DNA of 64,000 bases from an uncultured Verrucomicrobiota bacterium (GCA_964398915.1 CAYNOR010000006.1:14068-78067), one strand, 5' to 3'; positions 8,267 to 62,200 are shown, numbered from the stretch's first letter. Program-made: numbers and translations. The notes: generated from the letters alone by a model not told the origin.

Positions 8267-8318
8267 CAGGGCAGGCTGGAAGCCTGCGATACGTACCGCA
8301 GGCTTCCAGCCTGCCTTG
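8267..8318. terminator. long perfect hairpin between convergent genes (bidirectional terminator or REP-like element)
   Basis: GGCAGGCTGGAAGCCTGCG (8270-8288) pairs perfectly with CGCAGGCTTCCAGCCTGCC (8297-8315) around an 8-nt loop, and the stem can be extended by 3 more pairs. Confidence 0.5.
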
Positions 8319-10743: not shown

Positions 10744-11616
10744 TCAGTTGTAGAGTATCTGAATGGCGAGGCCCGCGATGGTGCTGATAAAAACAAGTAG
10801 CGCCACGATACGCAGGGTGTCCTTCAAATTATGGTTTTCTTTGAGCAAAACCAGCAGACCAAGTCCGCCGCTGCAGCACAGGCCGGATACAGTTGCCCCG
10901 TAGCCGAGTCCGCCTTTCAGGAATAATTCAGCGATGGCCACCGATGTGGCGCAGTTGGGAATTAATCCAACCAGTGCGGCCAGAAACGGCTGGAGAAGTG
11001 AATGGCGCAGCAGAACGTGACCTAGATTTTCTTCGCCGACCAGAGCGATGAGTCCGTTGATGCTGAGTGTTACTATAAAGATGAAAACAAAAATTTTCGA
11101 TGTGTGGATCAGCGGATGTTTAAGCAGCTGCCACCGGTTAGGCCCGCCCGAAAGCTGGTGATTGCAGCAGCCCAGCTCGTGATGTTCGTCCGCGTGATCG
11201 TCACGGACGGGTTCGGCTGACTTGCGGCGTCGCGATATCAGGTCAATCAGATATCCGGCGGTTATGCCGATGATCAACTTGGTGACCAACAGCGTTACAA
11301 CAATTCCGCTTCGGCCCGGTTGCGCCAGAATGACCGGAATGGCTTCATCGGAGGTTGAGAGAATCACAGCCAGCAATGTACCTGTGGTAATCAGGCGGCG
11401 TGAATAAAAGGATGCGGCGACTACAGAAAAACCGCATTGCGGAACACAGCCGAAAAGAGCGCCCAGTGCCGGACCGGTTTGGGCGGATTTTTTCAGCTGG
11501 TGTTCGATGGCTTTTCCGAATTTCCGTTCAAACCACTCCACGATAAAATAGACCAGTAGCAGGAATGGGATTATTCCGGCGCTATCGAATAAAGCATCAA
11601 GGACGAGTTCTTTCAT
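10744..11616 (-). CDS. ArsP_2-type putative 10-TM metal permease
   Basis: MKELVLDALFDSAGIIPFLLLVYFIVEWFE... and GCVPQCGFSVVAA are typical of this family. There is a central His-rich loop (DDHADEHHELGCCNH). Confidence 0.6.
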   Translation of the reverse strand: MKELVLDALFDSAGIIPFLLLVYFIVEWFERKFGKAIEHQLKKSAQTGPALGALFGCVPQCGFSVVAASFYSRRLITTGTLLAVILSTSDEAIPVILAQPGRSGIVVTLLVTKLIIGITAGYLIDLISRRRKSAEPVRDDHADEHHELGCCNHQLSGGPNRWQLLKHPLIHTSKIFVFIFIVTLSINGLIALVGEENLGHVLLRHSLLQPFLAALVGLIPNCATSVAIAELFLKGGLGYGATVSGLCCSGGLGLLVLLKENHNLKDTLRIVALLVFISTIAGLAIQILYN

Positions 11617-30752: not shown

Positions 30753-33023
30753 TTATAGTCCCGCAAACGGATTGGCGGAAAATCCGCGCGGCGGCTGGCG
30801 TTGCGGAGGCTTGTTTTGCTGCGGTCGCGGTACGGAACCTTTGGCCGGAGCCGTCTTGCCGCTGTCCTTGCGGGCCGTCAGCGAAATCCGTTTGCGCTCC
30901 AGATCGACCTCCAGCACCTTCACGGTAATGCGGTCGCCCGCCTGAACCGCTTCGGACGGATCGCTGATGAACCGGTCGCAGAGCTGGGAAATGTGAACCA
31001 GTCCGTCCTGATGCACGCCGACATCGACGAACGCGCCGAAAGCGGTGACGTTGGTGACGATTCCTTTGAGTTCCATCCCTTCCTTGAGATCGTTCATGGT
31101 CATCACGTCGTCTCGGAAGCCGACGGCTTCAAACTGTTCGCGCGGATCGCGGCCCGGCTTTTTTAATTCGTCGATGATGTCCTTTAGTGTCAGCTCGCCG
31201 ACGCTGTCGCTCTTGTACTTTTCGATCTTCACTTTGCTGACGATCTCTACATTGCCGACCAGCTTGTTGAGCGGCTCGCCGAGGTCGGCGGCAATCTGTT
31301 CGACCAGTTTATAGCGTTCCGGATGAACCGCCGAGGCGTCGAGCGGATTTTCGCTACCGTGAATGCGCAGGAATCCTGCCGCCTGTTCAAAGGCGCGCGG
31401 GCCAAGGCTTGGAACTTTCGTCAGCTCCTGACGGCTTTTAAACGCACCGTGTTCATTGCGGTAGGTGACGATTTTTTTGGCGAGGCTTTCGCCGATCCCG
31501 GCGACGCGCGAGAGCAGGGGGGCGCTGGCGGTGTTGAGTTCGACGCCGACGCGGTTCACGCAACTGACGACTACTTCGTCGAGTTTGTCCTTCAGCAGTT
31601 CCTGATAGACGTCGTGCTGGTACTGCCCGACGCCGATGGATTTCGGATCGGTTTTCACCAGTTCGGCCAGCGGATCTTGAAGGCGGCGGGCAATCGAGAT
31701 CGCGCCGCGGATGGTCAGGTCGAGGTCCGGAAACTCCTCGCGGGCGATTTCCGACGCGCTGTAAACCGACGCTCCGGCCTCGCTGACGGAAACTACGCTG
31801 GTGCCGGTTTTCTTCATCAGGCTGAGCAGCTTTTTGACGAATGTTTCGGTTTCGCGTCCGGCGGTGCCGTTACCGACGGCGATGGCCTGCGGCTGGTGCT
31901 TTTCAATGAACTTCGCTAGCGTGATTTGCGCCTGCTGGGTTTTCTCCGCGCCTTGCTCAGGATAGATGGTGACGGTGTCGAGGTATTTGCCGGTGGCGTC
32001 AATGGCAACGCATTTGCAACCGGTGCGCAGACCGGGGTCGATGCCGATAACCGGCTTTTCGCCGTATGGGGCAGCCAGCAGCAGACTCCGCAGGTTTTTG
32101 GCGAAAATTTCGACGGCGGCGCGGTCGGCCTTCATTTTCATTTCGACCGACACGTCGATTTCGACGCTGAGCGTCAGCATCCGCTTGTAGGCATCCTGAA
32201 TGGTCTTTTCGAGTTCACCGGCGAACGGCGAAGCGAGGTTGAGTCCGCAAAGTTCTTTCATCCGGTTAATCTGTTTGTCGGCGTCGATCACCAGTTTGCG
32301 GCGCAGTTCACCTTCGGTTTCGCCGCGGCGGATCGCCAGGTAGCGGTGCGACGGAATGTCGGAAATCGCCTGGCTGAAGTCGAAATAGTCTTTGTACTTG
32401 GAGGTTTCCGGCTTGGCGTCGGCCTTGACCGGCTCGGAGGCGATCACGCCGGTTTTGAAATAGGCTTCGCGGATCAGCGCACGGACGTCGGCTTTTTCAG
32501 CGACCTGCTCGGCGACGATGTCGCGTGCTCCGGCCAGCGCCTCTTCGGCGGTGGCGACCTCTTTTTCCGCATTGATGAACGCGGCGGCGGCTTTCAACGG
32601 ATCACTTTCCAGTGACTGGCTGGCGATCAGTTCGGCCAGCGGTTCGAGTCCTTTTTCCTTGGCGATGGTCGCGCGGGTGCGGCGTTTCGGTTTGTAGGGC
32701 AGATAAAGGTCTTCGAGTTCGGTTTTGGAAATTGTCCGCTCGATCTGCTCGCGCAGCTCGTCGGTCAGCTTGCCCTGTTCATTGATCGAACCGAGGATGG
32801 TCACGCGGCGGGCTTCCAGCGTGTTGTAGTAAGTCAGCTTTTCCTGAATGTTCAGAATCTGCACTTCGTCGAGATTGCCGTGCGCCTCCTTGCGGTAGCG
32901 GGCGATGAACGGGACGGTTGCCCCTTCGGCGAAAAGCTGGGCGACGGCGGCCACCTGGCGCGGGCCGATGCTGAGGTCTTTGGACACAAACGGGACGGCA
33001 TCAAACAGGTTTTGCTCGGACAT
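30753..33023 (-). CDS. tex: Tex-family transcription accessory protein (YqgF/HhH/S1 domains)
   Basis: VAQLFAEGATVPFIARYRKE, GIDPGLRTGCK, and a C-terminal S1 domain GIVTNVTAFGAFVDVGVHQDGLVHISQL. The ATG is at 33021-33023. Confidence 0.9.
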   Translation of the reverse strand: MSEQNLFDAVPFVSKDLSIGPRQVAAVAQLFAEGATVPFIARYRKEAHGNLDEVQILNIQEKLTYYNTLEARRVTILGSINEQGKLTDELREQIERTISKTELEDLYLPYKPKRRTRATIAKEKGLEPLAELIASQSLESDPLKAAAAFINAEKEVATAEEALAGARDIVAEQVAEKADVRALIREAYFKTGVIASEPVKADAKPETSKYKDYFDFSQAISDIPSHRYLAIRRGETEGELRRKLVIDADKQINRMKELCGLNLASPFAGELEKTIQDAYKRMLTLSVEIDVSVEMKMKADRAAVEIFAKNLRSLLLAAPYGEKPVIGIDPGLRTGCKCVAIDATGKYLDTVTIYPEQGAEKTQQAQITLAKFIEKHQPQAIAVGNGTAGRETETFVKKLLSLMKKTGTSVVSVSEAGASVYSASEIAREEFPDLDLTIRGAISIARRLQDPLAELVKTDPKSIGVGQYQHDVYQELLKDKLDEVVVSCVNRVGVELNTASAPLLSRVAGIGESLAKKIVTYRNEHGAFKSRQELTKVPSLGPRAFEQAAGFLRIHGSENPLDASAVHPERYKLVEQIAADLGEPLNKLVGNVEIVSKVKIEKYKSDSVGELTLKDIIDELKKPGRDPREQFEAVGFRDDVMTMNDLKEGMELKGIVTNVTAFGAFVDVGVHQDGLVHISQLCDRFISDPSEAVQAGDRITVKVLEVDLERKRISLTARKDSGKTAPAKGSVPRPQQNKPPQRQPPRGFSANPFAGL

Positions 33024-33104
33024 AAGTTGGATCAATTCCTCGGTTAGCAGTTACAAAATCAGCTACCGATGGTCTTTGAAACAGGCTGGTCCGTCAAGAC
33101 GTTC
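32981..33104. repeat. direct repeat copy A: tex 5' codons plus upstream leader
   Basis: Hand alignment to 34942-35065 gives 79 of the first 90 positions identical. Confidence 0.75.
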
Positions 33105-33488: not shown

Positions 33489-34343
33489 ATGGGCTTTCTA
33501 GCGAAGAGTGAGGCGTTTGTTTTGAAAAAAAGGGCTGAAACAGGAGATGCGATAGCACAGCACGACTTGGGGATTTGCTACGCTACAGGGAGTGGGGTTC
33601 CTCAGAATCATATAGAGGCGGTGAAATGGTACCGTCTAGCTTGTGCGCAAGGGATTCCAAACTCTCAGCACAACCTCGGTGTCTGCTACTTAGATGGCAC
33701 AGGTGTTCCGCAGGATTATAAAGAAGCTGCGAGGTGGTTCCGCCTTGCCGCTGAACAGGGCCATCCGGCGGCGCAAGCTAATCTCGGGATATGCTTCTGT
33801 TACGGGGTCGGAGTTCCGCAGGATTACATCCAAGCTTATGCGTGGCTTTCTCTTTCGGCCGACCAAGGCAATGAGATCGGTAAGTTGGAAGAGGAGAAAT
33901 TACGAAACAATATATCAACGCTGAAGTATTTAGAAGGGAGGCGGATGGCGGAGACGTATCGGGAATGTCAGTCGATTTGGAAGAAGATTAAACATGAAAA
34001 TGGTGACGTTACCATGAGCGACAAATCTACAGGTAAAATGTGGACCGGCATTGCGAACCTTGGCGGCCGCAAGCGATGGGATGATGCTTTAACCTTTTGC
34101 AAGAGCCTAACCTATGCGGGGTATTCGGACTGGCGACTGCCTAATAAAACCGAGCTCCGTGCTCAATTCCAGCACCAAAGAGAGTTTTCGGGTGTGGAGC
34201 GCGGTGGTAACTTATACTGGTCGGGAACCCTCTGTGGATATATTCCAGGTTTCGCGTGGTATGTGGATATGAACACCGGAAATGTAAGTACGCTAAGTAA
34301 GAGTTGGGATCTTTTTGTGTGGCCGGTGCGCGGCAAACAATAA
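33489..34343 (+). CDS. Sel1-repeat protein with C-terminal DUF1566 (Lcl-C-like) domain
   Basis: Repeated G(V)PQ(D/N)...A..W...A..QG units (four copies). The C-terminus has YSDWRLPNKTEL and WSGT. Confidence 0.75.
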   Translation: MGFLAKSEAFVLKKRAETGDAIAQHDLGICYATGSGVPQNHIEAVKWYRLACAQGIPNSQHNLGVCYLDGTGVPQDYKEAARWFRLAAEQGHPAAQANLGICFCYGVGVPQDYIQAYAWLSLSADQGNEIGKLEEEKLRNNISTLKYLEGRRMAETYRECQSIWKKIKHENGDVTMSDKSTGKMWTGIANLGGRKRWDDALTFCKSLTYAGYSDWRLPNKTELRAQFQHQREFSGVERGGNLYWSGTLCGYIPGFAWYVDMNTGNVSTLSKSWDLFVWPVRGKQ

Positions 34344-34366: not shown

Positions 34367-34750
34367 ATGAACATACCATATCTTAAAATCGATCACCGAT
34401 CAGATACGACTATTGGATTCATTTTTAGAGTAAAAACAGGGCTTTTTTCAGGATTTGATTGCGTAGGGGTGCTTTCTAACACCCGCACCCCCACAAATAA
34501 TAAAAGTGGGTGGGGTGTTTACCGGTCTCCCAGTGCTCGGAGCATTCGACATTCTTTAGAGGGAATAATAACACCGGGCTGTTTCGAGTCATCGGACAAC
34601 TCTTTTGGAGGACGGATAGAAGACGTGTGTGGAAATTTTACTTTGAGGAAATTTGATAGCAGCGACTATGCATGGCACGGTGGGTATGCTGCTTGGAAAA
34701 ATCACGACCGGCTATTCCCAAGCTCAGAGGAGGATATAGATATCGCGTAG
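34367..34750 (+). CDS. hypothetical protein
   Basis: 127-aa ORF with an upstream AAGGAAGAG Shine-Dalgarno-like sequence. I recognised no motif. Confidence 0.35.
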   Translation: MNIPYLKIDHRSDTTIGFIFRVKTGLFSGFDCVGVLSNTRTPTNNKSGWGVYRSPSARSIRHSLEGIITPGCFESSDNSFGGRIEDVCGNFTLRKFDSSDYAWHGGYAAWKNHDRLFPSSEEDIDIA

Positions 34751-34869
34751 GGGAGCCTTTCAAGATGCAGAGAGGGGTCCTTGAATCTTGATCTGCGATA
34801 GGCGGGAACCGGGCCTCATTTCCCAGGCTTCGGAAAGAAACCGGATGGGGCGGTTGTGCGGGATTTTCA

Positions 34870-34896
34870 ACGTAGATGCGACGCCCTCGTCGCATC
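34870..34896. repeat. solo REP-like unit (GTAG head plus 9-bp hairpin)
   Basis: aCGTAGATGCGACG-CCCT-CGTCGCATC, the same unit as the arms of the intragenic doublets. Confidence 0.7.
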
Positions 34897-34936
34897 CAGT
34901 TCGGAGCAGGAAACGCAGTCAGCGCCCGCGGTTACA

Positions 34937-34984
34937 GTCTGTGGAAACAAACGGAACAACATCAAAAAGGTTTTGCTCGGACAT
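34937..34984 (-). pseudogene. remnant of the tex 5' end (first 16 codons)
   Basis: Reads MSEQNLFDVVPFVSTD and reaches a stop after 5 more codons. Intact tex begins MSEQNLFDAVPFVSKD. Confidence 0.75.
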
Positions 34985-35065
34985 AAGTGAAATCAATTCC
35001 TCGGTTAGCGGTTAAAAAATCAGCCACCGATGCTCTGCAAAACCGCTCCCGAGGTCAAGCTGTTC
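34942..35065. repeat. direct repeat copy B of the tex 5' end and leader
   Basis: See copy A at 32981-33104. Confidence 0.75.
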
Positions 35066-35228
35066 CAATCATTGGGAAAATTTCACCGCGAGAGAGCGCA
35101 AGGAACGCAAAAAATTCCAGATTTTGGGAAATATGCATCAGAGTGATCTGATAACGTTCAGGGTGACTTTCGGTGCGCGTAAACCATAGACCGAATCAAC
35201 AGGCGGTTTCACCGTAAAGTCCAACCGC

Positions 35229-36173
35229 TTAGCTACCTTTATTGTTTTGTTTTGTCTGGTTCTTCTCCCATGAGTCTTCTGGCTCAATACCAAGGTCAAA
35301 CCAGATGTCCTTTCTAATGTTCCTGTTCGAAATACAGTATTTGTCACAAAGACACCCTGTTCGGCGATTATACTCTTCAACTGCTCGCTTATTATTTAAC
35401 TCTAGGTACCCATCTTTCTGTTCGTCCCACGATATTAATATGATTTGCTCGGGAGAAACTGGCAACGTAACTTCCGTTTTCTTTTGCCCCAGACCAATAT
35501 GGCGATAGAAGGGAGGAAGTTTGTGGATTTCTGGGTTAACCCATACACAAGGCGAATCAGATGTAATGAAAGTAGAAGACGAATTTGTCCCAATTATTGA
35601 AAGATGCATTTGAGCCAATAGCTCTGTTTGAGAAATTATCATTGGAAACAGCGAATTTTGCATTGGTTTTTCTGCAAGGTTACGAACCTGCTCATGCGAA
35701 AGAGATTCTCCAGAGCCAGAAGAATGTTGTGTCGCTATAAATCGCTCTGCTCCTTCTTTTGTCATTTGTTCAGCTAATGAATCCATCATCTTTAGAGCTT
35801 CGCCCCATTGATTCTGCATATGATCGCGTTGCGCTACAGTGCGACTCTTCATAGCAGCAACGAATAATAACAATTGGAATTTTTCATCAGGCAAAAGATC
35901 CATTCTGTTTGTTAATTTTTCACGACGTAATCGAGCAAAAAAACCTTCAAGTCCTGAAAGGCCATGCTCTAAGGTCAAATCTCTTTCGCCTCCGCTCCCG
36001 TGAATGGTATACATCTCGCTCTCACAAAAAATGTTTTGCGGAGCTTTGTTTTTTGAAGCAGAACCATCCTTGGCAATCATCCATACATATGGCTCATGAT
36101 TTTTTGGCGCGTCAGGATCACACCAAGCCTTGAGATATGATTCAGGTATCCAGTGCTGTTTCTTGTGCCTCAT
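35229..36173 (-). CDS. DUF4238 domain protein
   Basis: The N-terminus KKQHWIPESYLKAWCD matches the H(Y/W)(V/I)P..YL..(F/W) start of DUF4238. The gene is AT-rich. Confidence 0.6.
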   Translation of the reverse strand: MRHKKQHWIPESYLKAWCDPDAPKNHEPYVWMIAKDGSASKNKAPQNIFCESEMYTIHGSGGERDLTLEHGLSGLEGFFARLRREKLTNRMDLLPDEKFQLLLFVAAMKSRTVAQRDHMQNQWGEALKMMDSLAEQMTKEGAERFIATQHSSGSGESLSHEQVRNLAEKPMQNSLFPMIISQTELLAQMHLSIIGTNSSSTFITSDSPCVWVNPEIHKLPPFYRHIGLGQKKTEVTLPVSPEQIILISWDEQKDGYLELNNKRAVEEYNRRTGCLCDKYCISNRNIRKDIWFDLGIEPEDSWEKNQTKQNNKGS

Positions 36174-36397
36174 GTTTTTTATTCGTAGCTAACAGTTTGT
36201 TAGGCAGAAACGGACTCTGCTTATCACGGGGATTTCGGTGTTCGGCAGAAACCTGCCGATCCGGAGTCCGAAGCCGGATTGCTTATAGCAGTCTGGGGAG
36301 GGGCGTTCAATCTTTCATCCGCCTCCGCCGACGGGCTACGGCGCGACACGAAGGGTGGAAAAAATCTTGGCGGCTCTGCGCCTCTTTGCGCGAGGAA

Positions 36398-36571
36398 TTT
36401 CCAATGTTTGGAAAAGTGCGGGGTAAAAGTTCCGAACATTGGAAAAACATGGTTGCTACCCGCTGGTAGGGACGGTTCGCCGAACTGTCCGCGGCGCGCT
36501 CGGCGAGCACGCCCTACCTTCTTCTTCCAAGCATTGGAAAAGTTGGGCAAAAAGTTCCAAACATTGGAAAA
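36398..36571. repeat. two copies of a composite module made of TTCCAA-N3-TTGGAA type palindromes around a GC-rich imperfect palindrome
   Basis: TTTCCAATGTTTGGAAAAGTgcGGggtAAAAGTTCCGAACATTGGAAAA (36398-36446) versus CTTCCAAGCATTGGAAAAGTtgGGcaAAAAGTTCCAAACATTGGAAAA (36524-36571). Between them lies GGTAGGGACGGTTCGCCGA...TCGGCGAGCACGCCCTACC. Confidence 0.7.
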
Positions 36572-37552: not shown

Positions 37553-37779
37553 TGAGAATGAAAGCTTGCTCCTGTTAAGGGTGGAGCGCACGAGCACACG
37601 GCCCGCATGAGAAACGCGCCCAGAGGTCGCGTTCCACCTGCCGTTTTCGTGGCTTTTCGTGTTTTTCGTGGCCATTCCCGGCTTGAGTCTGTTCCATTTT
37701 TCCAAGGGTTGGAAAAATCGGGTTTGGCATCCCCCTTCATTCGTGTACATTCGCGGCCTCTTTTAAAAAAGGAATTCCA

Positions 37780-40700
37780 ATGATTTATAGAATTGAAATC
37801 GGACTGAAACAGGGCGTGCCGGATGCTCGCGGACGCGGCGTGATCGGGCGGGCGAAAAGCGCGCTGGGTATGAAGATCAAGGGTTGCCAGACGCGCGACG
37901 TTTATAAGGTGGACGCCAACATTAAGCGCGCCGAGGCCAAGGCGGTTCAGCTCGGCTTTGCCGACGCCGTGGTCGCCCGTTCCGCTCTCGGTCGCCTGAA
38001 AGCTCCCGGCAGCTTCGATTGGATGCTCGAAATCGGCTTTAAGCCGGGCGTAACTGATAACGTCGGTCGTACCGCCCGCGGCGCGATGGCTGATATTCTC
38101 GGCCGCGAACTGGCGTGGGAGGAACAGGTGTACACCTTAATTCAGTATTTCCTCAAAGGCGACCTGACCCGCGAAGACGTTTTGCATCTCGGCAAAGACC
38201 TGCTGGCCAATACGCTGATTCAAACGATTCAGGTTTTCTCGAAGGAAGAGTGGCTGGCCGCTGAACCGGATATGACCGCGCCGATCTTCGACGACCATCA
38301 GGAAGTCAAAGTTAACGTGATCGAGCTGCCGGACAACGATGCCGCGCTGATGAAGATTTCCAGCGACGGGATTCTATCCCTTTCTCTCGAGGAAATGCGC
38401 GTGATCCGCAACCACTACCTGAGTGACGCTGTGAAAGCGCACCGCGCCGAACTCGGCATGCCCGTCTGGCCGACCGACGTCGAGCTGGAGTGTATCGCCC
38501 AGACCTGGTCGGAGCACTGCTCGCACAAGGTGTTTGCCGGAACGATCGAATACAAAGACGAAGAAACCGGCAAAGAGGAGATCATCAATTCCCTCTACAA
38601 AACCTACGTCAAAGCCTCCACCAAGAAGGTGGCTGAAAAAATCGACTGGCTGGTTTCGGTGTTCACCGACAACGCGGGCGTGATCAAATTTAACGAAGAC
38701 CTCCATCTGGTCTATAAAGTTGAAACCCATAACTCGCCGTCGGCGCTTGATCCGTTCGGCGGATCGATGACCGGCATTGTCGGCGTCAACCGCGACCCGA
38801 TGGGCACCGGCATGGGCGCGCAGCTGGTTTCCAACGTCTGGGGCTACTGCCTCGGCTCGCCGTTCTACGATAAGGAAATTCCTGCCGGGCTGATGCATCC
38901 GCGCCGTATTCGCGACGGCGTACATGCCGGCGTGATTGCGGGCGGCAACGAGTCAGGCATTCCGTGGAGCCGCGGCTTTGAATGTTTTGACGAGCGCTAC
39001 CTAGGCAAGCCGCTGGTTTACTGCGGCACGATGGGAACTCTGCCGGTTAACGTCGGCGGACGGCCTTCCGAACGCAAAGAGGTGCAGGTCGGCGACTGGA
39101 CCGTCATGTGCGGCGGCCGCATCGGCAAAGACGGCATTCACGGCGCGACGTTCTCGTCCGAAGAACTCCGCACCGAATCGCCCGCGCAGGCAGTGCAGAT
39201 CGGCGACCCGCTGACCCAGCGCAAGCTCTACGAATTTCTGATGGAAGCGCGCGATCTCGGCCTTTTCCGCTGTATCACCGATAACGGCGCGGGCGGCATT
39301 TCCTGCTCGTTCGGCGAAATGGGCAAATATTCCGGCGGCTGCGAATGCGAACTCAAAGACGCTCCGCTGAAATACGAAGGGCTCCAGCCGTGGGAAATTC
39401 TGGTTTCCGAAGCGCAGGAACGCATGACGCTGGCCGTTCAGCCCGAATGCCGCAGCGCTTTTGAAGCGTTAGCTAAAAAGCGCGATGTAGAGGTATCCTT
39501 TATGGGTACCTATAACGACAGCGGATATTTTACAGTGAAATATGAAGGCAAGGTCGTCGCCAGTCTCGATATGGATTTCCTCTACGAAACCGGCTGTCCG
39601 AAACTGCACATGAAAGGCGTCTGGAAGAAACCGGAAGTTCCGGCGCCGGAAAAAGCGAAGGGCGGAAACCGCACGAAATCTCTCCGTCAGATGATGGGCC
39701 GACTCAATATCTGCTCTCGCGAATACAAGAGCCGCATCTATGACGGCGAAGTCAAAGGCCTTTCGGTCGTCAAACCGTTTGTCGGCGTCAACGCCGACGT
39801 GCCGTCCGACGCGACCGTCATGCGTATCGAATACAACAAAGATCGCGGCGCGATTCTGGCCGAAGGGATTAATCCGTGGTTTTCCGATATCGACACCTAC
39901 CACATGACGGCGTCAGTTATCGACGAATCCATCCGCCGCGTTATCAGCGTCGGCGGACGGCTTGATCGTATCGCGATTCTCGACAACTTCTGCTGGCCCG
40001 ATCCGGTGCAGTCGCCCAAGACGCCGGACGGTGAATACAAGATGGCTCAGCTCGTCCGCTCCAACAAAGCGCTCTACGACTACACCATTGCGTTTGGCAC
40101 ACCGGCGGTTTCCGGTAAGGACTCCTGCAAGAACGACTCGACGCGCGGCGGAAAGAAAATCTCCATTCCGCCGACACTGCTCATTTCATCCATCGGCCAG
40201 ATCGACGACGTGAAGAAAGCGGTTACCATGCCGCTCAAAGAAACGGGCAGTCTGATCTACATGGTCGGTGTGACGAAAAACGAGCTCGGCGCTTCCGAAT
40301 GGAACCGCATGCTGGCCGAAGAGCAGGGCAATCCGTGGAACTACGGCGGTGACGTGCCGACCGTTGATGCCGCCTCCGCGCTGGCAATTTATCGCGCGAT
40401 GAACAAAGCGCAGGATGAAGGAATTCTGCTTTCGTCGCATACGCCGTCCAAAGGCGGACTGGCGATCGGTTTCGCGCTCATCTGCATGGGCGGCGGACTC
40501 GGTGCAGAAATCGATCTGGCAAAAGTTCCAACACCTGGCAAACGGAAACTCAAAGACGATTCGATTCTCTTCTCGGAATCCAACAGCCGCTTCATCGTTT
40601 CGGTTAAACCTGAAAATGCCGCGAAGTTTGAAGCGCTGTTTTCCGGCCTGCCGGTCGCGCAGATCGGAACCGTCACGGCGGATAAAAAGTTGGTGGTTAA

Positions 40701-40782
40701 AGGGGTCAAAGGCGCGACGCGCATCAACACAGCAATTTCTGATTTGGTGAAGCCTTTCAAAAAGACACTGTACGGAATATAG
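37780..40782 (+). CDS. purL: phosphoribosylformylglycinamidine synthase, PurS-like N-domain fused to PurL
   Basis: 1000 aa, with HNSPSALDPFGGSMTG, DNGAGGISCS and SGKDS. Confidence 0.9.
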   Translation: MIYRIEIGLKQGVPDARGRGVIGRAKSALGMKIKGCQTRDVYKVDANIKRAEAKAVQLGFADAVVARSALGRLKAPGSFDWMLEIGFKPGVTDNVGRTARGAMADILGRELAWEEQVYTLIQYFLKGDLTREDVLHLGKDLLANTLIQTIQVFSKEEWLAAEPDMTAPIFDDHQEVKVNVIELPDNDAALMKISSDGILSLSLEEMRVIRNHYLSDAVKAHRAELGMPVWPTDVELECIAQTWSEHCSHKVFAGTIEYKDEETGKEEIINSLYKTYVKASTKKVAEKIDWLVSVFTDNAGVIKFNEDLHLVYKVETHNSPSALDPFGGSMTGIVGVNRDPMGTGMGAQLVSNVWGYCLGSPFYDKEIPAGLMHPRRIRDGVHAGVIAGGNESGIPWSRGFECFDERYLGKPLVYCGTMGTLPVNVGGRPSERKEVQVGDWTVMCGGRIGKDGIHGATFSSEELRTESPAQAVQIGDPLTQRKLYEFLMEARDLGLFRCITDNGAGGISCSFGEMGKYSGGCECELKDAPLKYEGLQPWEILVSEAQERMTLAVQPECRSAFEALAKKRDVEVSFMGTYNDSGYFTVKYEGKVVASLDMDFLYETGCPKLHMKGVWKKPEVPAPEKAKGGNRTKSLRQMMGRLNICSREYKSRIYDGEVKGLSVVKPFVGVNADVPSDATVMRIEYNKDRGAILAEGINPWFSDIDTYHMTASVIDESIRRVISVGGRLDRIAILDNFCWPDPVQSPKTPDGEYKMAQLVRSNKALYDYTIAFGTPAVSGKDSCKNDSTRGGKKISIPPTLLISSIGQIDDVKKAVTMPLKETGSLIYMVGVTKNELGASEWNRMLAEEQGNPWNYGGDVPTVDAASALAIYRAMNKAQDEGILLSSHTPSKGGLAIGFALICMGGGLGAEIDLAKVPTPGKRKLKDDSILFSESNSRFIVSVKPENAAKFEALFSGLPVAQIGTVTADKKLVVKGVKGATRINTAISDLVKPFKKTLYGI

Positions 40783-41382: not shown

Positions 41383-41606
41383 ATACTCAGGCACAAGCTG
41401 AAGATATTTGGCAGTACGGCACCTACGAAGGTGAGGAGAAGCTTCGTATGCAGCAGGAGCGAAAACTTTCGCTCGCACAAAAGCTGGATTTGCTGGATGA
41501 AATGATCGACTTCGCCACGAGCACCCACGGCACCCAAATGCTGGTTCGTGAGGATTCTCCCGGTTACGGTACCTTTGCCAAAAAAACAAAATCGGATGAT
41601 TCGTGA
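41379..41606 (+). CDS. hypothetical 75-aa protein
   Basis: ATGA overlap with the upstream gene. It contains SLAQKLDLLDEMIDFA. Confidence 0.4.
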   Translation: MNTQAQAEDIWQYGTYEGEEKLRMQQERKLSLAQKLDLLDEMIDFATSTHGTQMLVREDSPGYGTFAKKTKSDDS

Positions 41607-41842
41607 TGAATAAGGACGTACTCAAGATTCTAAAGCAGGCCTCGCCGGAAGATTTCGACGGACATACGGCGTTTGCGAGAATGACACCCGATCAGCGTCT
41701 AACATGGCTTGAAGAAGCCAATGCCGCCTATTTCGAGCTACACGGACGCGCCGTGCCGGAACTTCGCGTAAAATTGACACCGACCTCGACTCGCTCCGCA
41801 AACCGTTCAAGAAAACGCTCTATGGGATATAGATCTTTTTGA
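41603..41842 (+). CDS. hypothetical 79-aa protein; its 3' end reads through the purL remnant in another frame
   Basis: ATGA overlap with the upstream gene. TPDQRLTWLEEANAAY resembles the motif of the preceding ORF. Confidence 0.35.
   Translation: MMNKDVLKILKQASPEDFDGHTAFARMTPDQRLTWLEEANAAYFELHGRAVPELRVKLTPTSTRSANRSRKRSMGYRSF
41767..41832 (+). pseudogene. remnant of a diverged purL 3' end
   Basis: Translates RKIDTDLDSLRKPFKKTLYGI*, compared with TRINTAISDLVKPFKKTLYGI* at 40720-40782. The last 10 codons encode identical residues but 8 of them differ at synonymous sites. Confidence 0.75.
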
Positions 41843-45315: not shown

Positions 45316-47079
45316 ATGCTAATAATTATCCAACACAGTGACGGCTGGCTTCGATTTGAGAAGCCGGTCGAAGTGCTGACGGCGCGCGCATCGGATGAAG
45401 TTTTCCAATGTCTGGAAAAAATTGAAGCCAGCGGTTTGTGGGCCGCCGGATTTATTTCCTACGAAGCCGCCGGCGCGTTTGATTCCGTATTGAAAACGCG
45501 CGCGACGGGTAATCTGCCGCTTCTGCAGTTCGGGCTTTTTAAAAATGTGGAAACCCACCCCGGCCTGCGGCCACCCCTCCATGGGAGGGGATTGTATCAA
45601 CTCGGCGAATGGACGCCGTCGGTGACGCGCGGAGAATATTCCGAAGCAATTGCGAAAATCAAAGAGCACATTGCGGCGGGCGACACGTATCAGGTGAATT
45701 ACACCTTCCGGCTGAATGCCGATTTTTCCGGTTCGCCGTTCGACTTTTTTTGCGATTTGGCCGTCGCCCAGCAGGGCAGTTATGCCGCCTTTATAGAAAC
45801 CAATGAGTTCGCTATCTGTTCGGCTTCGCCGGAACTTTTTTTCGAACTCAAAGACGGCGTGATTACATCGCGTCCGATGAAAGGCACCCTGCCGCGCGCG
45901 TTGACGGCGGAGGCGGATCGCGCCGCCGCTGAAGCACTGAAGAATTCGGCGAAAGATCGTGCGGAAAATATTATGATCGTCGATATGATCCGCAACGATA
46001 TCGGGCGCATTGCTGAGGCGGGAAGTGTCGAAACGCTCAGCCGGTTCGATGTCGAAAAATATCCGACTGTCTGGCAGTTGACTTCGACGGTGCGAGGAAA
46101 TGTAGACGCGACGCCCTCGTCGCGTTTCCCATCTGGAATAAAACGCGACGAGGGCGTCGCGTCTACGTTGAGACCTCTGTTTACGGCGTTATTTCCCTGC
46201 GCATCGATTACCGGCGCGCCGAAGGCGAAGACGATGGAGATTATCCAAGGTTTGGAGAAGTCGCCGCGCGGCGTTTATACCGGAGCGATTGGTTTTATTG
46301 CGCCGGACGGTTCAGCTCAGTTCAATGTTGCGATCCGGACAGCCGTGGTGGATCGGAGTGCTGGAGTGGTGGAGTACGGGATTGGCGGGGGGATTGTTTG
46401 GGACTCTGATCCGGATCAGGAATATCAGGAAGCCATGTCCAAAGCGGCGATCCTGACGAAAAAGATGCCGCAGTTTCAGTTGCTGGAAACGATGCTTTGG
46501 GAGGATGGAGAAATCTTTCTGCTGGAGCGCCACCTGAAACGGCTGGCGGAGTCGGCGGAGTATTTTGACGTCAAAATCGATCTGAATGAAATCCGCGACC
46601 ATCTGCGCCATCTGCGGTTTGAATATCCAACACGAATCCGGCTGTTGTTGAGCCGGGACGGGCAATTTAAGGTGGAAGCGGCATCCTGCTGCTGGACTCA
46701 GCGGCAGGATGCCGCTTCCACACTGGCGCTTGCGAAGCGTCCGGTCGATTCCGGGGATGTTTTCCTTTATCACAAGACGACGAACCGCTCGGTTTATGAA
46801 AAAGCGAAGGCGGACTTTCCGGAGGCCGACGACGTATTGCTGTTTAATGAGCGCGGCGAGGTGACGGAGAGCTGTATGGCCAACATCGTGGTCGAGCTGG
46901 ACGGGCGCAAGGTGACGCCGCCGGTCTCCTGCGGGCTGCTTGCGGGAACGTTCCGCGACGAACTGCTCGCAAAGGGCGAGATTGAGGAGCGGGCCATTAC
47001 ACTGGATGATTTAATGCGTGCCGACTCCGTCTGGTTGATCAATTCGGTGCGGCGATGGCAAGTCGCCAGCCTGCTCTAA
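45316..47079 (+). CDS. pabB: aminodeoxychorismate synthase component I fused to an aminotransferase class IV (ADC lyase-like) domain
   Basis: FPCASITGAPK, RGVYTGAIGF and GGGIVWDSDP, followed by a class IV-like C-terminal half (FLYHKTTNR). Confidence 0.85.
   Translation: MLIIIQHSDGWLRFEKPVEVLTARASDEVFQCLEKIEASGLWAAGFISYEAAGAFDSVLKTRATGNLPLLQFGLFKNVETHPGLRPPLHGRGLYQLGEWTPSVTRGEYSEAIAKIKEHIAAGDTYQVNYTFRLNADFSGSPFDFFCDLAVAQQGSYAAFIETNEFAICSASPELFFELKDGVITSRPMKGTLPRALTAEADRAAAEALKNSAKDRAENIMIVDMIRNDIGRIAEAGSVETLSRFDVEKYPTVWQLTSTVRGNVDATPSSRFPSGIKRDEGVASTLRPLFTALFPCASITGAPKAKTMEIIQGLEKSPRGVYTGAIGFIAPDGSAQFNVAIRTAVVDRSAGVVEYGIGGGIVWDSDPDQEYQEAMSKAAILTKKMPQFQLLETMLWEDGEIFLLERHLKRLAESAEYFDVKIDLNEIRDHLRHLRFEYPTRIRLLLSRDGQFKVEAASCCWTQRQDAASTLALAKRPVDSGDVFLYHKTTNRSVYEKAKADFPEADDVLLFNERGEVTESCMANIVVELDGRKVTPPVSCGLLAGTFRDELLAKGEIEERAITLDDLMRADSVWLINSVRRWQVASLL
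46102..46166. repeat. REPIN-like inverted REP doublet inserted in-frame in pabB
   Basis: GTAGACGCGACGCCCTCGTCGCGTT-spacer-AACGCGACGAGGGCGTCGCGTCTAC, translated as VDATPSSRFPSGIKRDEGVAST. Confidence 0.8.
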
Positions 47080-47178
47080 CCGGTTGTTCCATCAGGATGG
47101 TCGTTGTTAGCGTTGTTTTGACAGTCGTTCGCGCGGCGTTTAGCATGCTGGCATTTCATGCTAAAGGATTGGAGATTT

Positions 47179-47847
47179 ATGAAGGCATTTCAAATCGGGT
47201 TGATGGTTCTTCTGTTCGCAGGGATCGTTTGCGGCCAGCCGCTGGAGATCACTGCTTATGATCCGGTGAGCGGGGAGGTGAAAATCAAAGACGGGTCGGG
47301 GAGTGCCACCCGGCTGTTCGACACATTCAGTGCGGAAGAACAACAGCAAATTACCGAATGGCTGGCGGATAAGGAGTTTAGAAAATTAAAAATAACGATC
47401 CAAAAAGAAAGCAAGAAGGAATATAAAGAAGAATCTTTCTTCACGTCCGGCAGTATTAAGAAGGTGTCATATAGTATAACGGTGAAAAATCCTGCACAGA
47501 TCGAATTCAAGGATCTCGAGCTGGTCTGCCGCATATTTTGTGAAACGAAAGGAGGGAAAGTGGATCGACCATGGGGCGTGGAGGACAAAAAAAAATTCAC
47601 AATTGCACCCGGTGAAACCCAGCGGTTTGAGCAGTCTGTGGGGATTCGTGACCAAAAAACTGAATTTGAATCTTACCGCGACTCCTCATGGAATTCCGCA
47701 GTGGTTTCTCCGGAGGATATAATCATAAAGGATAAGCTTCTGGGTTTGTACTTGTGCATCAGTAAAAAAGGTCGGAATGGGAAGGTCATGAAACTGGAGC
47801 AGGAAGCGGGCCATATCCCCGATGAGAAAAAATGGTCGCAGTATTGA
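47179..47847 (+). CDS. secreted hypothetical protein
   Basis: Signal peptide MKAFQIGLMVLLFAGIVCG, with GGAG 8 nt upstream of the start. Confidence 0.5.
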   Translation: MKAFQIGLMVLLFAGIVCGQPLEITAYDPVSGEVKIKDGSGSATRLFDTFSAEEQQQITEWLADKEFRKLKITIQKESKKEYKEESFFTSGSIKKVSYSITVKNPAQIEFKDLELVCRIFCETKGGKVDRPWGVEDKKKFTIAPGETQRFEQSVGIRDQKTEFESYRDSSWNSAVVSPEDIIIKDKLLGLYLCISKKGRNGKVMKLEQEAGHIPDEKKWSQY

Positions 47848-47880
47848 CCTTTGGTTCAGCCAAAAACAACGACTTCCCGC

Positions 47881-48864
47881 ATGCCGGAAAATGTTTCTGC
47901 TGACCGAAAAAACAGCGGAAAGGCAAGCGCGGAGGGCCTGGTGTTCGCGGAGGGCGGAACTTTTATAATGGGCGGGGGGGATGTATCCGATGACATGCTG
48001 CGGGGTGAAGATGAACTTCCCGCTCATTCCATAACGTTAGATTCGTTTGAGATCGCAAAATATGAAACCACTCATGAAGAAGTGTTCCGGGTTTTAAGCT
48101 GGGCTCTTAAAGGCGGAAAGGTATGGCTGAAAGGGAATACCGGCAAAGGATACGGAGCCATGGTGTATCTGTCTGCCGGGAAAAAGAAACAGCTTCTGCG
48201 CACGTATATAGTCGGGGTTTCGTGTGACGACAATGGACTTGTGTTAAAGCGAGGGTGGGAGAATCACCCCTGCTCTCAAGTCACCTGGTACGGTGCAGCA
48301 GCTTACTGCAATTTCCGTTCCGAGATGGAGGGGCTGGCTCCCTGTTATGACATGGAGAAGGGTTGGGAATGTAATTTTAAGGCAAGCGGGTATCGGCTGC
48401 CGACCGAAGCCGAGTGGGAATATGCCGCGAGAGGCGGGGCGTCCGGAAGGGGAACTATATACAGCGGGTCTGATTCTCTTGAAGATGTCGGGTGGTGTAA
48501 TCAAAAACAGACGACAGTGGATTACCGGACAACGGAGATTAAGATTAGGCAGGATGATGACCGGGAGCAACCCGTTGGAACCAAAGAGCCCAATGAACTG
48601 GGGATCTATGATATGAGCGGCAATGTGTCGGAGTGGTGTAACGATTGGTACGGAGAATACGATGACAAAGCGCAGACAAACCCTGTTGGGGAAAAACGCG
48701 GGAAGAGTCGTGTTGTGCGAGGTGGGAGTTATATTGATTCACCACAGTTTTGCCGAGTTTCGGCCCGGCGGAACGAAGACCCGGACAGGGGCGTTTCAGG
48801 GCTGGGGTTACCTGACGGCGGATTTCGTGTTGTTAAACCGGTTCCTAAAAATTCCGGCGATTAA
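47881..48864 (+). CDS. formylglycine-generating-enzyme (SUMF1/FGE-sulfatase) family protein
   Basis: GYRLPTEAEWEYAARGG, GNVSEWCNDWY and RVVRGGSY. The start is uncertain (TTG at 47851 or ATG at 47881). Confidence 0.8.
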   Translation: MPENVSADRKNSGKASAEGLVFAEGGTFIMGGGDVSDDMLRGEDELPAHSITLDSFEIAKYETTHEEVFRVLSWALKGGKVWLKGNTGKGYGAMVYLSAGKKKQLLRTYIVGVSCDDNGLVLKRGWENHPCSQVTWYGAAAYCNFRSEMEGLAPCYDMEKGWECNFKASGYRLPTEAEWEYAARGGASGRGTIYSGSDSLEDVGWCNQKQTTVDYRTTEIKIRQDDDREQPVGTKEPNELGIYDMSGNVSEWCNDWYGEYDDKAQTNPVGEKRGKSRVVRGGSYIDSPQFCRVSARRNEDPDRGVSGLGLPDGGFRVVKPVPKNSGD

Positions 48865-48890
48865 TTGCAGCCATGAAGGCGGCCCGGGTG

Positions 48891-49074
48891 CAAGGTGACG
48901 CCGCCGGTCTCCTGCGGGTTGCTTGCGGGAACGTTCCGCGACGAACTGCTCGAAAAGGGCGAGATTGAGGAGCGGGCTGTCTCACTTAGTGACCTGAAAC
49001 GGGCAAAAGCTGTCTGGCTGATAAATTCTGTTCGCAAATGGCGGAGGGTTTCTGTTAACTGGACGGCCTTATGA
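48891..49074 (+). pseudogene. remnant of the pabBC 3' end, with its stop overlapping the purQ ATG
   Basis: 85 of 88 nt are identical to 46908-46995, followed by a diverged tail encoding ...AVSLSDLKRAKAVWLINSVRKWRRVSVNWTAL*. Its TGA (49072-49074) overlaps the purQ ATG (49071-49073). Confidence 0.85.
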
Positions 49075-49868
49075 AACCTAAGATTTTAATTATTACGGGC
49101 TATGGAGTGAACTGCGAAGCGGAGTCATCGCGGGCGTGGGAACTGGCGGGCGGGTCACCGGTTAAGGTTCATCTGAATGACCTGCTGGACAGTCCGGTGC
49201 AGATGCGCGATTTCTGCGGGCTGATGTTTATCGGCGGATTCTCCTACGGCGACCACATGACCAGCGGCCATGTTTTCGCTTTGCGGGTGAAGCACCACCT
49301 GCGCGAAGAACTTCAGAAATTCATCGACGACGGAAAAATCATTCTCGGCGTCTGCAACGGGTTTCAGACAATGACCAAGATCGGCCTGCTGCCGGGGCTG
49401 AACGGCGAATATTTTGATCCGAAGGTTTCACTGATGCAGAACGACTGCGGCACCTTCCAGAATTTCTGGGTCAATTTGAAGTTCGAGGCTAACTCGCCGT
49501 GTATCTTCACCAAAGGACTCGACACGATGCCGCTGCCGATCCGCCACGGTGAAGGTAAGATTTTTACCACGGACAAAGCCGTCATCGAACAGATCGAAAA
49601 ACTCGGTTGCGCCGCCGCGCGCTATGCGGATGCTGCCGGCAATCCGACCAAAGATTTTCCGGCCAACCCGAACGGCTCGCTGAATGCCATTGCCGGACTG
49701 TGCGATCCGACCGGACGCATCTTCGGCCTGATGCCGCATCCCGAGGCCTATCTTTTTCCGGAAAATCATCCCAACTGGGACATTCAAAAACTGAACGGCA
49801 CGCTTCCCGCGCACGGGCTCGGGCTGAAGTTTTTTGAAAACGGCGTGAAGTATCTCGCCGCCAGCTAG
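49071..49868 (+). CDS. purQ: phosphoribosylformylglycinamidine synthase glutamine amidotransferase subunit
   Basis: GVCNGFQ, HGEG and MPHPE motifs. Confidence 0.9.
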   Translation: MKPKILIITGYGVNCEAESSRAWELAGGSPVKVHLNDLLDSPVQMRDFCGLMFIGGFSYGDHMTSGHVFALRVKHHLREELQKFIDDGKIILGVCNGFQTMTKIGLLPGLNGEYFDPKVSLMQNDCGTFQNFWVNLKFEANSPCIFTKGLDTMPLPIRHGEGKIFTTDKAVIEQIEKLGCAAARYADAAGNPTKDFPANPNGSLNAIAGLCDPTGRIFGLMPHPEAYLFPENHPNWDIQKLNGTLPAHGLGLKFFENGVKYLAAS

Positions 49869-59249: not shown

Positions 59250-62200
59250 CTATGACTTGAGCAGTTCTTTTGGATCGATGGCGGTGGTGCGGCAGATGTG
59301 GGAATAGTCGTCGTACCCGGCGATGAGCGGTTCGGTGGCGAGGTCGCCGGCACGCAGTTTCCGGACATTGGAAAAGAGTGTTTTGAGGAACGCTTCCGTC
59401 AGCTCCGGATTCATTGAAAGCCGTTTCTTTGTGAAGTGTTTGGTCATTTCGTTCAGGTCGCGTTCCTGCAGGTGATAGACGGCCTGTGTTTTTTCGTTCA
59501 GTTCCGGCGTGTTGTGCGCGCCAAAAAACTTTTGCTGCGCCGCAAAGGTGTAGAGCGGAAGCTGGCAGTCGAGATTGAGCGCGATTTTCTTTTCGAGGTT
59601 GTCCAGCGAGTCCTTGCGCGACTTGCTCTTGTAGTCCACCACCAGCAACCGTTCCAGTTCGCCATTGGAGTCGAAGATCAGATCAATGCGGTCGATTTTA
59701 CCTTTCAGCCGGACTTCTTCATCGCCGCGCTTTAGCGTCACCGGCAAATCGTGTTTGGCGTCGAACTTCAGTTCGAACAGTGCCGGATAACGATTTTCAG
59801 CATGCGCCGTTTCGATATCCATGCGGACAAAGTTTTCGATCATCTGCCGCAGCTTGCGTTTTTCGGTTTCCCATATCGCGGGGTGGCCGAGGTGACGGCT
59901 GGGCCGCCGCTCCGCTTTTTTGAATTCTTCTTCCGCAATGCTGCGTGCCAGCGCCAGCAGTTCGCCGGACTTCGACGGATCAAAAACCGCCAGCGGGATA
60001 GAATCTGCTCCGGACTTTTGGCTGATCTTCCAACGTAGATGCGACGCCCTCGTCGCATTTTCATCCTGTGAGGAACGCGACGAGGGCGTCGCGTCTACGT
60101 TAATTCTTGTCGCGTACCGACCGCTTTGTCTGGCGATGGCGGTATAAACCTGTTCGAGAATGTCGTGAATGACGTTGCCGCGGTCTGCCGGGTCGGTGCC
60201 GTCTTCGTGTGTGCGGTCGGGCCGGATGCTCAGTACCTTTTCGAGGAAGAAAACAAACCGGTTGCGGGCCAGCGATTCCAGTGCCGTTGCGCTGAACTCC
60301 GGATGGTCTTTGAGCCATTTCTGGATCGTAGACGCGACGCCCTCGTCGCGTTCAGATTTTCCAATGTTTGGAAAACGCGACGAGGGCGTCGCGTCTACGT
60401 TAAAAGCCAGCTTCGCCCGTGTCTGCCGGACTTCATCCTCGGCGCGGCAGAGTTCCGGCGGCAGAATCGTGTGAAACGATGCGCCGAGTACCGGTTTTTC
60501 GATTCCGGTCAGGCTGCGCATCCGTTCAAAAAATTCACCCGGCGCGCGCTCTTTGCCGTCGGCACCGGTGCGGGTATAGGAAAGCGTCAGCCGTTCACGC
60601 GCCGCGCTCATGGCGGTGAGAAAAAGAATTTCTTCCTGAATCAGCGCGGCTCCGGTTTCCGAAAGCGCCAGCCGCGGGCAGGGAATTTTCCGTTCGTCCA
60701 GAAATGCCCGTAGCGCTTTGCGCTCGTTCCCGTTCAGCAGAGAATCAACTTTTGGAATCTGAGGGAAAGTACGGTCATCCATTCCGGCAATATAAACCGA
60801 TTCGAAGCGCAGCCCCGCCGTGTCCATCGGATTGACAATCCAGACGCCGCTTTCTGTTCCGGCGTCATCTTTGAGTGTGACGTTATCGAGCAGTTCCTCA
60901 AACAGCGGAATCATTTGCCCGATCGGGAGCGCCGGGATAGCGGGTGTGTTCAGTTCTTCAATTAAAACCAGAACCTCATCAGGCAATTTCAGGCTGTGTT
61001 GCTGAATCAGAACCGTGACTTGTTCTGAGAAACGTAGACGCGACGCCCCCGTCGCGTTTCTTTGCACACGGGCCGCGACGGGGGCGTCGCGTCTACACTC
61101 AAAGAAGCTTTCCAGTTCCTTCGGCAGGCGGCGCAGGCGCGGAGGTTCTTTGTGGCGGATTTCCTGAATCAGTGCCGCGGGGTCTTCAATACCGGGCCAC
61201 TGGATGCCGGGCATTAACAGCAGGTCGCAAAGCCGGTCGCGCGAAAGCGTTTGGGGAAATGCGAGTAAAGCCATCAAGGCTTTAACCGGCGGATGAGCGG
61301 CGGCGGGCGTACCGCGCCGGAAATGGTACGGGATGCTGAAGCGCGCAAAGACGTCGGGGATAATGTCAGTGTACGGGCTCAGGTCGCGCAGGATCAGCGC
61401 GATTTCGTCGGGCGGAGTTCCGGCCTCGATCTCATGGGCGATGCGCCGCGCGGCATCTTCGATTTCGCCGTACGGGTGGGCGGAAACAAAAAACGAAACC
61501 CGTTCCCGCGATTCCGATTCGAGGATATTGCTGTCGTCAGCTTCGATGGCATCGGCGAAATCCTCCAACCACGGTTTCCATTCTTCTTCGGATCCTCGCA
61601 TCAGCTCGCTGCGTACGACGGCGCAGAGCCGGTCTTCAGCCGCTTCGGCGTGGGCACCCGGCAGAACGGAATAGATTTTCACGCGATCCGTCCCTAGCCG
61701 TTTTTTGAGCGCGGCTACGAAACGCTCTTCGAACGGGTTGAACCAGCGGACGGCACGGAAGTGGATTTTTCCAGCCAGTTCGCGGGGCAGTTTGCCGGAT
61801 TCAATCAGACGGAGCAGGGCGGTGTTGACAGCGAAGCGGTCGGCGATGTCCATTTTTGTACACCATGCGCGCCATGCTTTGAGAAGCTGGCCGATACCGT
61901 GCAGTTTATGGTTCGGCTCATGCGCCAGCAGCCATTCAGTAATGCCGGATTCGTTTTCGGCAAAAACGGCGAAGGTTTCAATCGTCTGCCGGAGCAGTCC
62001 AGCTCGCGCGGCAGACGAAAGGCTGGCGAGCGGCTGGCCGGATGCAAAAGAAACGTTTCTAGCGGCTTCTTCGAGAAGCAGGCGGATTTCGGTTGGGCCG
62101 GGCACGCGGCCCTTGAGCAGTCCTGTGCGCCGGGCGGCCCGTTCGCAAAGGATAAGGAGCTTTTTCTGGGTTAAAAGGCGGGATGTATCGACAACCCCGT

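Follow-up and report, generated by a model that had tools for sequence, protein, structure and literature searches.

We here describe the junction between pabBC and purQ in a window of 64,000 nucleotides (nt) from an uncultured Verrucomicrobiota bacterium (GCA_964398915.1 CAYNOR010000006.1:14068-78067), in which the 3' end of pabBC, a fusion gene for aminodeoxychorismate synthase and lyase, is present twice. One copy ends the intact gene, the other one lies directly ahead of purQ, and two cargo genes are located between them. All coordinates are those of the window, which means the whole stretch of DNA analysed. The organism was placed in the Kiritimatiellales/Pontiellaceae from the names attached to related source records. 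Contigs and loci used for comparison carry labels such as L001 or L171, and compared proteins the labels P0045 and P0052. The locus consists of the following parts, given from purL to purQ.

37780-40782, plus strand: purL (FGAM synthase), Pfam FGAR-AT_linker/AIRS/AIRS_C
45316-47079, plus strand: pabBC fusion (aminodeoxychorismate synthase and lyase), intact, with a foreign tail, Pfam Chorismate_bind and Aminotran_4
46902-46995, plus strand: core, proximal copy (left direct repeat), 90/94 identical to 48885-48978 and 85/88 over 46908-46995
46996-47079, plus strand: tail A, a foreign PabC C-terminus that is homologous to the native one (AITLDDLMRADSVWLINSVRRWQVASLL*), with tail B sharing 62.5% of its nt
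47118-47146, plus strand: sigma-70-like promoter ahead of the cargo (TTGACA, 17 nt, TAGCAT), called from its consensus match (10/12)
47179-47847, plus strand: cargo gene 1, orphan of 222 amino acids (aa) with a signal-peptide-like N-terminus, read by eye
47851-48864, plus strand: cargo gene 2, FGE-sulfatase (SUMF1/EgtB/PvdO) domain protein, Pfam PF03781, E = 1.4e-50
48865-48884, plus strand: 20-nt spacer from the FGE stop to the distal repeat, the right-hand insert junction, without similarity to pabBC upstream of 46902
48885-48978, plus strand: core, distal copy (right direct repeat), from the repeat alignment
48979-49074, plus strand: tail B, displaced native pabC 3' end (AVSLSDLKRAKAVWLINSVRKWRRVSVNWTAL*), whose stop overlaps purQ
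49071-49868, plus strand: purQ (FGAM synthase glutaminase subunit), Pfam GATase_5, E = 4.9e-82

The pabBC product of 587 aa keeps an intact frame, matches the Aminotran_4 profile up to position 218 of 223 and scores 355 bits with the TIGR00553 pabB model, for which the cut-off is 328. For cargo gene 1, no homolog other than itself was found among 5.8 billion clusters, and the gene has no match in Pfam, NCBIfam or PADLOC; its GC content is 44-47%, compared to 55% in pabBC. Cargo gene 2, whose start is set at 47941 by gene callers, scores under every NCBIfam equivalog cut-off. Its best foreign homologs come from other phyla and reach at most 45% identity, if one disregards some short partial alignments, which cover 42-45% of the query and have identities of up to 52%. 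Since these homologs are only distant and belong to other phyla, they offer no alternative context for the cargo. PADLOC gave no match on the cargo, its only match being a DUF4238 gene elsewhere in the window. With one orphan gene, one gene with distant homologs and the lower GC content of the first gene, the cargo looks acquired.

The direct repeat and its assembly

Comparison of the window with itself by BLAST revealed a direct repeat of 158 nt (46902-47059 and 48885-49042, offset 1983) with an overall identity of 82% (E = 2.8e-39). Its left edge is sharp, as only 3 of the 22 nt ahead of 46902 are identical between the copies. Within the first 94 nt (46902-46995 and 48885-48978) 90 positions agree, while the next 64 nt (46996-47059) agree at only 40 positions (62.5%), and beyond 47059 the similarity is gone. 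A 33-mer from the centre of the core occurs exactly twice in the window and not once in shuffled sequences. The initial annotation of this DNA had described 85 identical positions out of 88 between 46908-46995 and 48891-48978, two diverged peptide tails that remain alignable at the protein level, and a distal stop codon overlapping the purQ start. We could reproduce the count, the tails as quoted there and the ATGA at 49071-49074. Its 88-nt core is therefore real, but the homologous stretch is larger than was assumed and comprises the 158 nt given above.

As a baseline for conservation, pairwise nt identities were taken from 20 related genomes, among which the 88-nt core averages 71% (maximum 87.5%) and the 64-nt tail likewise 71%. 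A drop from 97% to 62% within a single genome, at a position where core and tail are equally conserved among relatives, can therefore not be explained by a conservation profile and indicates two different histories of the two parts. The three to four core differences between the copies could not be polarised with 30 relatives, which contained no informative signal.

The source being a metagenome, two co-occurring strains might have been merged through the shared 88-nt stretch, a mis-assembly that the initial annotation had named as a possible explanation of the identity, and one small contig (L084) indeed breaks within the core at 46937. However, three assemblies agree on the sequence. The source JGI contig (L001) is identical across both repeat copies, a megahit k141 contig from ENA (L085) is identical at 8542 of 8542 positions across both, and a Logan k=31 unitig (L172, SRR7760392) covers window 46940-48949 at 100% identity, exactly the stretch delimited by the two occurrences of the shared 33-mer, thereby joining tail A to the end of the FGE gene and the distal core. 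As k = 141 exceeds the 94 nt of the repeat, a chimera of strains is very unlikely, and the junction of FGE gene, spacer and core is unique sequence that must exist in the reads. We consequently consider an assembly artefact extremely improbable. The contig L084, which stems from another ENA analysis, corresponds to window 46937-48082, begins one base past a core mismatch at 46936 and carries a deletion of 2 nt (47812-47813) close to where the secreted-protein gene ends; these differences may be population variants or the onset of cargo decay.

Empty sites, native tail and recurrent gene gain

The gene order purL-pabBC-purQ-ilvC is conserved in the clade. In five relatives (L082, L010, L087, L091 and L171) the site between pabBC and purQ is empty and the two genes overlap in ATGA, and in L011/L088, L095, L099 and L012 they are found within 10 nt of each other. 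The ancestral pabBC-purQ arrangement postulated in the initial annotation is thereby borne out, the empty site for which it had suggested a search exists even in the near-conspecific L171, and the objection it had foreseen, that no relative might couple pabBC to purQ, falls away. All tails at empty sites are of the distal type (…KWRKVS[VL]NW.AL*).

The nearest relatives L170 and L171, which were drawn from the 90% cluster of a window protein, share 98-100% identity with the window between 46440 and 46790 and can therefore be considered near-conspecific genomes that do not carry this cargo. The tail of L171 agrees with tail B at 56 of 64 positions, but with tail A at only 42 of 64. Tail B is furthermore 86-88% identical to the tails of L006, L010 and L019 and has the same ATGA context as L082 and L091, and L082, L003 and L170 can be aligned with the proximal gene only as far as 46988-46992, which is the end of the core. 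Taking the L171 tail and the halting alignments into account, tail B is the native one, while tail A came with the cargo. The best nt match of tail A among the 20 relatives is 77%, and L167, a locus beyond those 20, aligns to the whole proximal copy, core and tail, at 81%. Hence, tail A derives from a more distant pabBC and arrived together with both cargo genes. The two proteins closest to it in their tails, P0045 and P0052 (belonging to L167 and L168), were rejected as donors of tail A, their DNA being only 77-81% identical across the 3' end; in both loci, the genes downstream of pabBC differ from those of the window.

The distal copy still forms an open reading frame (ORF) of 59 aa (48895-49074), and since tail B is undecayed, in a frame typical of the family, the event must be recent. 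We conclude that a recent insertion of 1,983 bp entered the last 180 nt of pabBC and pushed the native core and tail B downstream, as the initial annotation had held in proposing that the proximal tail and the two genes form an insertion flanked by direct repeats in an attL/attR-like layout. The gene purQ, 92-94% identical to its relatives at the aa level, was originally translationally coupled to pabBC.

An alternative history would start from an old tandem-like duplication, the copies of which diverged until recent gene conversion re-homogenised only their first 94 nt. Direct repeats at a distance of 2 kb can convert each other, and a conversion tract would naturally halt at the left limit of homology. 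However, the non-functional tail B is ortholog-like with an intact frame while the functional tail A is the outlier, the opposite of what this history would predict. In addition, the near-conspecific L171 has an empty site, and 62% identity would not support conversion nearby. We therefore regard this history as very unlikely.

The junction between pabBC and purQ is a recurrent insertion hot spot in the Kiritimatiellales/Pontiellaceae clade, where relatives carry nine or more different sets of cargo and gap states range from -4 nt to 5.2 kb. Labels of cargo in the relatives were assigned by eye from ORF translations, those of L168 and L170 by precomputed Pfam. The following states were found.

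No cargo: ATGA-coupled sites or sites of at most 10 nt
45-93 nt, partly resembling a miniature inverted-repeat transposable element (MITE): L014, L016, L006, L019
389 nt: L004
Nucleotidyltransferase and HEPN-like pair, by eye: L003, L017
Hexokinase-like gene, by eye: L007, L009
Alcohol dehydrogenase, by eye: L015
PAS-PP2C protein, by eye: L021
PQQ-type propeller, by eye: L096
ArsP and hexokinase, precomputed Pfam: L168
FUR-znuABC and toxin-antitoxin-like pair, precomputed Pfam: L170

Different cargo is hence found between the same conserved flanks in close relatives and without mobility genes, as is the case for minimal mobile elements. Protein identity amounts to 92-97% for the flanking genes and to 71-82% for pabBC, and close relatives display mosaic identity blocks inside pabBC, 100% followed by about 82%, indicating frequent homologous exchange.

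Further observations concern the ends and the interior of these genes. A MITE-like sequence (translating to …PQKGAENSKNL / LCALCAL…) lengthens some pabBC tails (L006, L019, L004). A conserved leader of about 25-50 nt (…FSV*L[QR]..*ATGA) precedes purQ in all uncoupled genomes, and its last 25 nt stem from the old pabC end; we noted it in L004, L006, L007, L009, L014-L016, L019, L021 and L168 (there about 50 nt upstream). Within pabBC of the window, two in-frame palindromic elements of about 70 nt (46099-46169, aa 262-285) and about 50 nt (46672-46721, aa 453-469) are present. Further copies are located at 60032-60101, 60327-60403 and 61031-61096, inside an ORF for a PD-(D/E)XK nuclease of 1010 aa, and a partial one at 34865-34895. 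Tichowtungia and another distant homolog are devoid of both pabBC palindromes, and relatives carry other palindrome families at the same two positions. The elements resemble the in-frame palindromic elements of the Rickettsia type.

Duplicated gene ends are not restricted to this site, and in the window and its relatives at least five were counted, two of them of the pabC 3' end and one each of the 3' end of purL and the 5' ends of pabBC and tex. In L170, a decayed pabC' remnant (11007-11156) lies behind the FUR-znuABC block and is followed by an NTase and HEPN pair and purQ. It is uniformly 80% identical to the functional 3' end of the same locus (6817-6966), and its left edge corresponds to about window position 46916, some 15 nt from the edge of the window repeat (46899-46902). 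The znu block with a 'KAVLRKAYA'-type tail is common to L170, L005 and L008, which makes this an older event of the same kind. In L011/L088, the pabBC 5' end is repeated over 94 nt (L011 4232-4325 and 5061-5153) around an MNT and HEPN-like pair, labelled by eye, between purL and pabBC. Of this repeat, the first 74 nt agree at 72 positions, and next to them, on the cargo side, lie about 20 nt that are homologous but diverged. The functional pabBC copy begins at a new start codon, which overlaps the stop of the HEPN gene. A shorter duplication of the pabBC 5' end in L098 (3275-3318 and 5013-5056) surrounds a small insertion, again between purL and pabBC.

In the window itself, the 5' end of tex, which lies on the minus strand with its start at 33023, is repeated together with upstream sequence over 100 nt at 87% identity (32976-33075 and 34937-35036), flanking a Sel1/Lcl_C gene at 33489-34343. 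The purL 3' end is also present twice (40723-40782 and 41773-41832), both copies ending in …KPFKKTLYGI* at 57% nt identity. Of the two, it is the downstream remnant that resembles the purL tails of relatives (81-92%), and purL itself ends in a different tail. Between them lie a four-helix-bundle gene (23S rRNA IVS-type, TIGR04258) and two small ORFs, whose presence varies among relatives, and the ORF 41606-41842 crosses the purL' remnant out of frame. In total, 4.5 kb of extra genes separate purL from pabBC in the window; in L003, L082 and L170, the purL stop overlaps the pabBC start.

No integrase was found among the cargo genes of these gene-end duplications. With repeat lengths of 158, 150, 100, 94, 60 and 44 nt, a fixed length as produced by a staggered-cut enzyme can be rejected. 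A motif shared by the duplicated cores of the different events was not found by eye, inverted repeats of the GGAAC type being unconvincing and encoding conserved residues.

Possible routes of insertion

The initial annotation had interpreted the layout as site-specific integration with the crossover inside the 88-nt core. In this interpretation a small element, either served by an integrase in trans or left over from a larger element whose integrase was lost, would have recombined attP with attB in the 94-nt core, leaving the repeats as attL and attR. Features of integrative elements are found, in that repeats of the target 3' end flank the insert, the insert restores the frame and empty sites exist in relatives. 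The geometry is that of e14/phage 21 in icd of E. coli K-12, with its icdC pseudogene (PMC13626634), where the target gene receives a new 3' end from the insert, its native 3' end is left as a fragment beyond the insert, and the repeat begins abruptly on the left and extends as far as the stop codon. That the independent remnant in L170 starts within about 15 nt of the window repeat also fits a preferred site, although the two left edges do differ (46899-46902 and 46916).

Site-specific integration is, however, not supported by the gene content. We screened 33 selected window ORFs, including nearly all likely real genes, with Pfam, and used precomputed Pfam on called genes between 16.4 and 57 kb of the window. 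No integrase, excisionase, transposase or relaxase domain was detected in the 1.98-kb insert, in the tested large ORFs or in these called genes, nor was an integrase or excisionase present among the cargo genes of L170 or L011. In comparison, the prophage e14 measures 15.2 kb and encodes intE and xisE beside its att site. The core and the cargo were found in no other context. The 33-mer has no match in metagenome and viral contig collections (the source sample itself not being part of them), the cargo has no close homolog, and the circular or otherwise placed copies of the core that the initial annotation had proposed to look for did not turn up. With a mean nt conservation of 71% across hosts, the core would moreover be a poor general attB. 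Reciprocal exchange would leave one core derived from the element, which fits poorly to 97% identity beside 62%. The e14 repeat, which we measured on MG1655 as 165 nt with 153/165 identical positions, is uniform at about 93%, with its differences evenly spread. The insertion works like an e14-type gene-end integration but lacks what defines that family, an encoded integrase, and we consider a site-specific event unlikely, albeit still worth keeping in mind. A transposon or insertion sequence was rejected, as there is no transposase, no terminal inverted repeats occur at 47080/48884 and the repeat is, with 94-158 nt, long and partly diverged.

We propose, at about even confidence, an integrase-free and homology-dependent insertion by a single crossover (Campbell-type). 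In such a model, a circularised fragment carrying core, tail A and cargo would cross over once with the chromosomal end of pabBC, and this single crossover would leave a copy of the homologous segment at either end of the insert. Crossovers would be confined to the 94-nt core, the only part similar enough for RecA, so that each passage through a conspecific host would reset the core to the host sequence. Tail A, being too diverged to recombine, would travel with the cargo and keep the mark of its distant origin. A core reset to the host and a tail staying with the cargo would explain the drop from 97% to 62% and the end of the identity at 46995. The fixed left edge would reflect the limit of the fragment that was first captured. 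The circular intermediate, the dependence on RecA and the cycling within the species are elements of the model that we infer.

What would be expected of a Campbell-type event is present at the locus, namely a homologous segment on both sides of the insert, a repeat length that varies between events, and a stretch of high identity for the crossover (90/94, with an exact 33-mer). In E. coli, single crossovers of circular DNA with the chromosome gave duplications of the homologous segment of 109-950 bp, the main by-product in assays for homology-facilitated illegitimate recombination (HFIR), where the duplicated segment likewise flanks the insert, no site-specific recombinase takes part and the repeat length is set by the fragment and not by an enzyme (PMC3240628). 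Those assays were performed with laboratory plasmids of perfect homology, whereas the segment described here is near-identical in one part and 38% diverged in the other, and its circle is hypothetical. Minimal mobile elements of Neisseria similarly carry varied genes between conserved flanks, without mobility genes and by homologous recombination in the flanks (PMC3787668). These normally swap by double crossover without duplication of a flank, in contrast to the window, where the end of one flank is duplicated and the flanks originally overlapped. As the flanking genes overlap, only insertions that duplicate the junction would leave both genes intact.

A one-step duplicative insertion, by HFIR or by template switching during replication, would instead start with two native cores. 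In this reading, a strand ending in the native core would pair in register with a foreign pabBC, copy tail A, the secreted-protein gene and the FGE gene, and rejoin the native template about 94 nt behind its exit via microhomology. Two near-identical cores beside a foreign tail need no extra assumption here, the right junction offers an imperfect microhomology (CGGG[C/T]GCAAGG), and L011 displays the same layout, with cores agreeing at 72/74 positions and, towards the cargo, another 20 nt or so that are semi-homologous. HFIR and transformation-induced merodiploidy combine one homologous with one non-homologous joint, and duplications by transformation-driven interchromatid joining are documented in S. 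pneumoniae (PMC3784515). Reported merodiploid duplications measure 100-900 kb and not 94 nt, however, and documented HFIR events usually delete recipient DNA and do not duplicate it (PMC3240628). Pairing would furthermore be needed between alleles that are probably about 20-30% diverged, no donor is known, and all three to four core differences must be later mutations. We therefore regard such a one-step event as doubtful and rather improbable.

Several points weigh against the Campbell-type insertion as well. No circular form, donor genome or other context of the cargo was found in protein clusters or in the metagenome and viral collections, and 94 nt is short for RecA-dependent exchange. The reset of the core by passage through hosts is itself postulated. 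The starts of the two independent remnants, in the window and in L170, differ by no more than about 15 nt, as they might if a certain site were preferred, and a recombinase could be encoded elsewhere in the genome, outside the 64 kb. The unitig L172 has identical ends of 27 nt, which we counted neither for nor against; as a sign of a circle they were rejected, since a k=31 unitig bounded by a repeat looks alike.

The Campbell-type insertion can be extended to a more general but speculative picture of how genes might be gained between overlapping genes with no integrase involved. Small islets of one to five genes might carry a private copy of the end of the neighbouring gene and thereby excise and re-insert through homologous recombination of the host, a generalisation for which we see little probability. 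To the same low degree, the coding sequence itself might act as a self-renewing attL/attR, spreading the islet within a species along with a 'fossil' tail from the first host. If integrase-free cycling proved true, gene-end duplications would be a search signature for islets missed by mobile-element finders that depend on recombinases.

For a specialist, the event would be a clear but fairly ordinary acquisition of genes at a hot spot of recombination, tidy rather than surprising. It provides a clean case of before and after, in which new genes were wedged between translationally coupled genes with neither being destroyed. The gene pabBC gained a C-terminus that is foreign but compatible, while its old C-terminal coding sequence persists as a leader of purQ. 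The event also identifies purL|pabBC|purQ as a region of frequent gene gain, in a group of bacteria that degrade polysaccharides in marine and freshwater habitats.

Further elements of the window

A segment of 1.9 kb (34472-36380), comprising the DUF4238 gene at 35229-36173 and its flanks, is 99.8% identical to L170, in an environment of core genes with about 91-93% identity, which suggests a very recent transfer. The DUF4238 gene matches the PADLOC candidate defence model DUF4238-Pers, and L170 is without the adjacent Bro-N gene. Repeated motifs similar to TTCCAA-N3-TTGGAAAA are located at 36396-36571 and 37696-37722, upstream of the Bro-N gene and of purL, and may represent operator sites. 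A near-perfect palindrome of 52 nt (8267-8318, 92%) between two convergent genes is probably a terminator.

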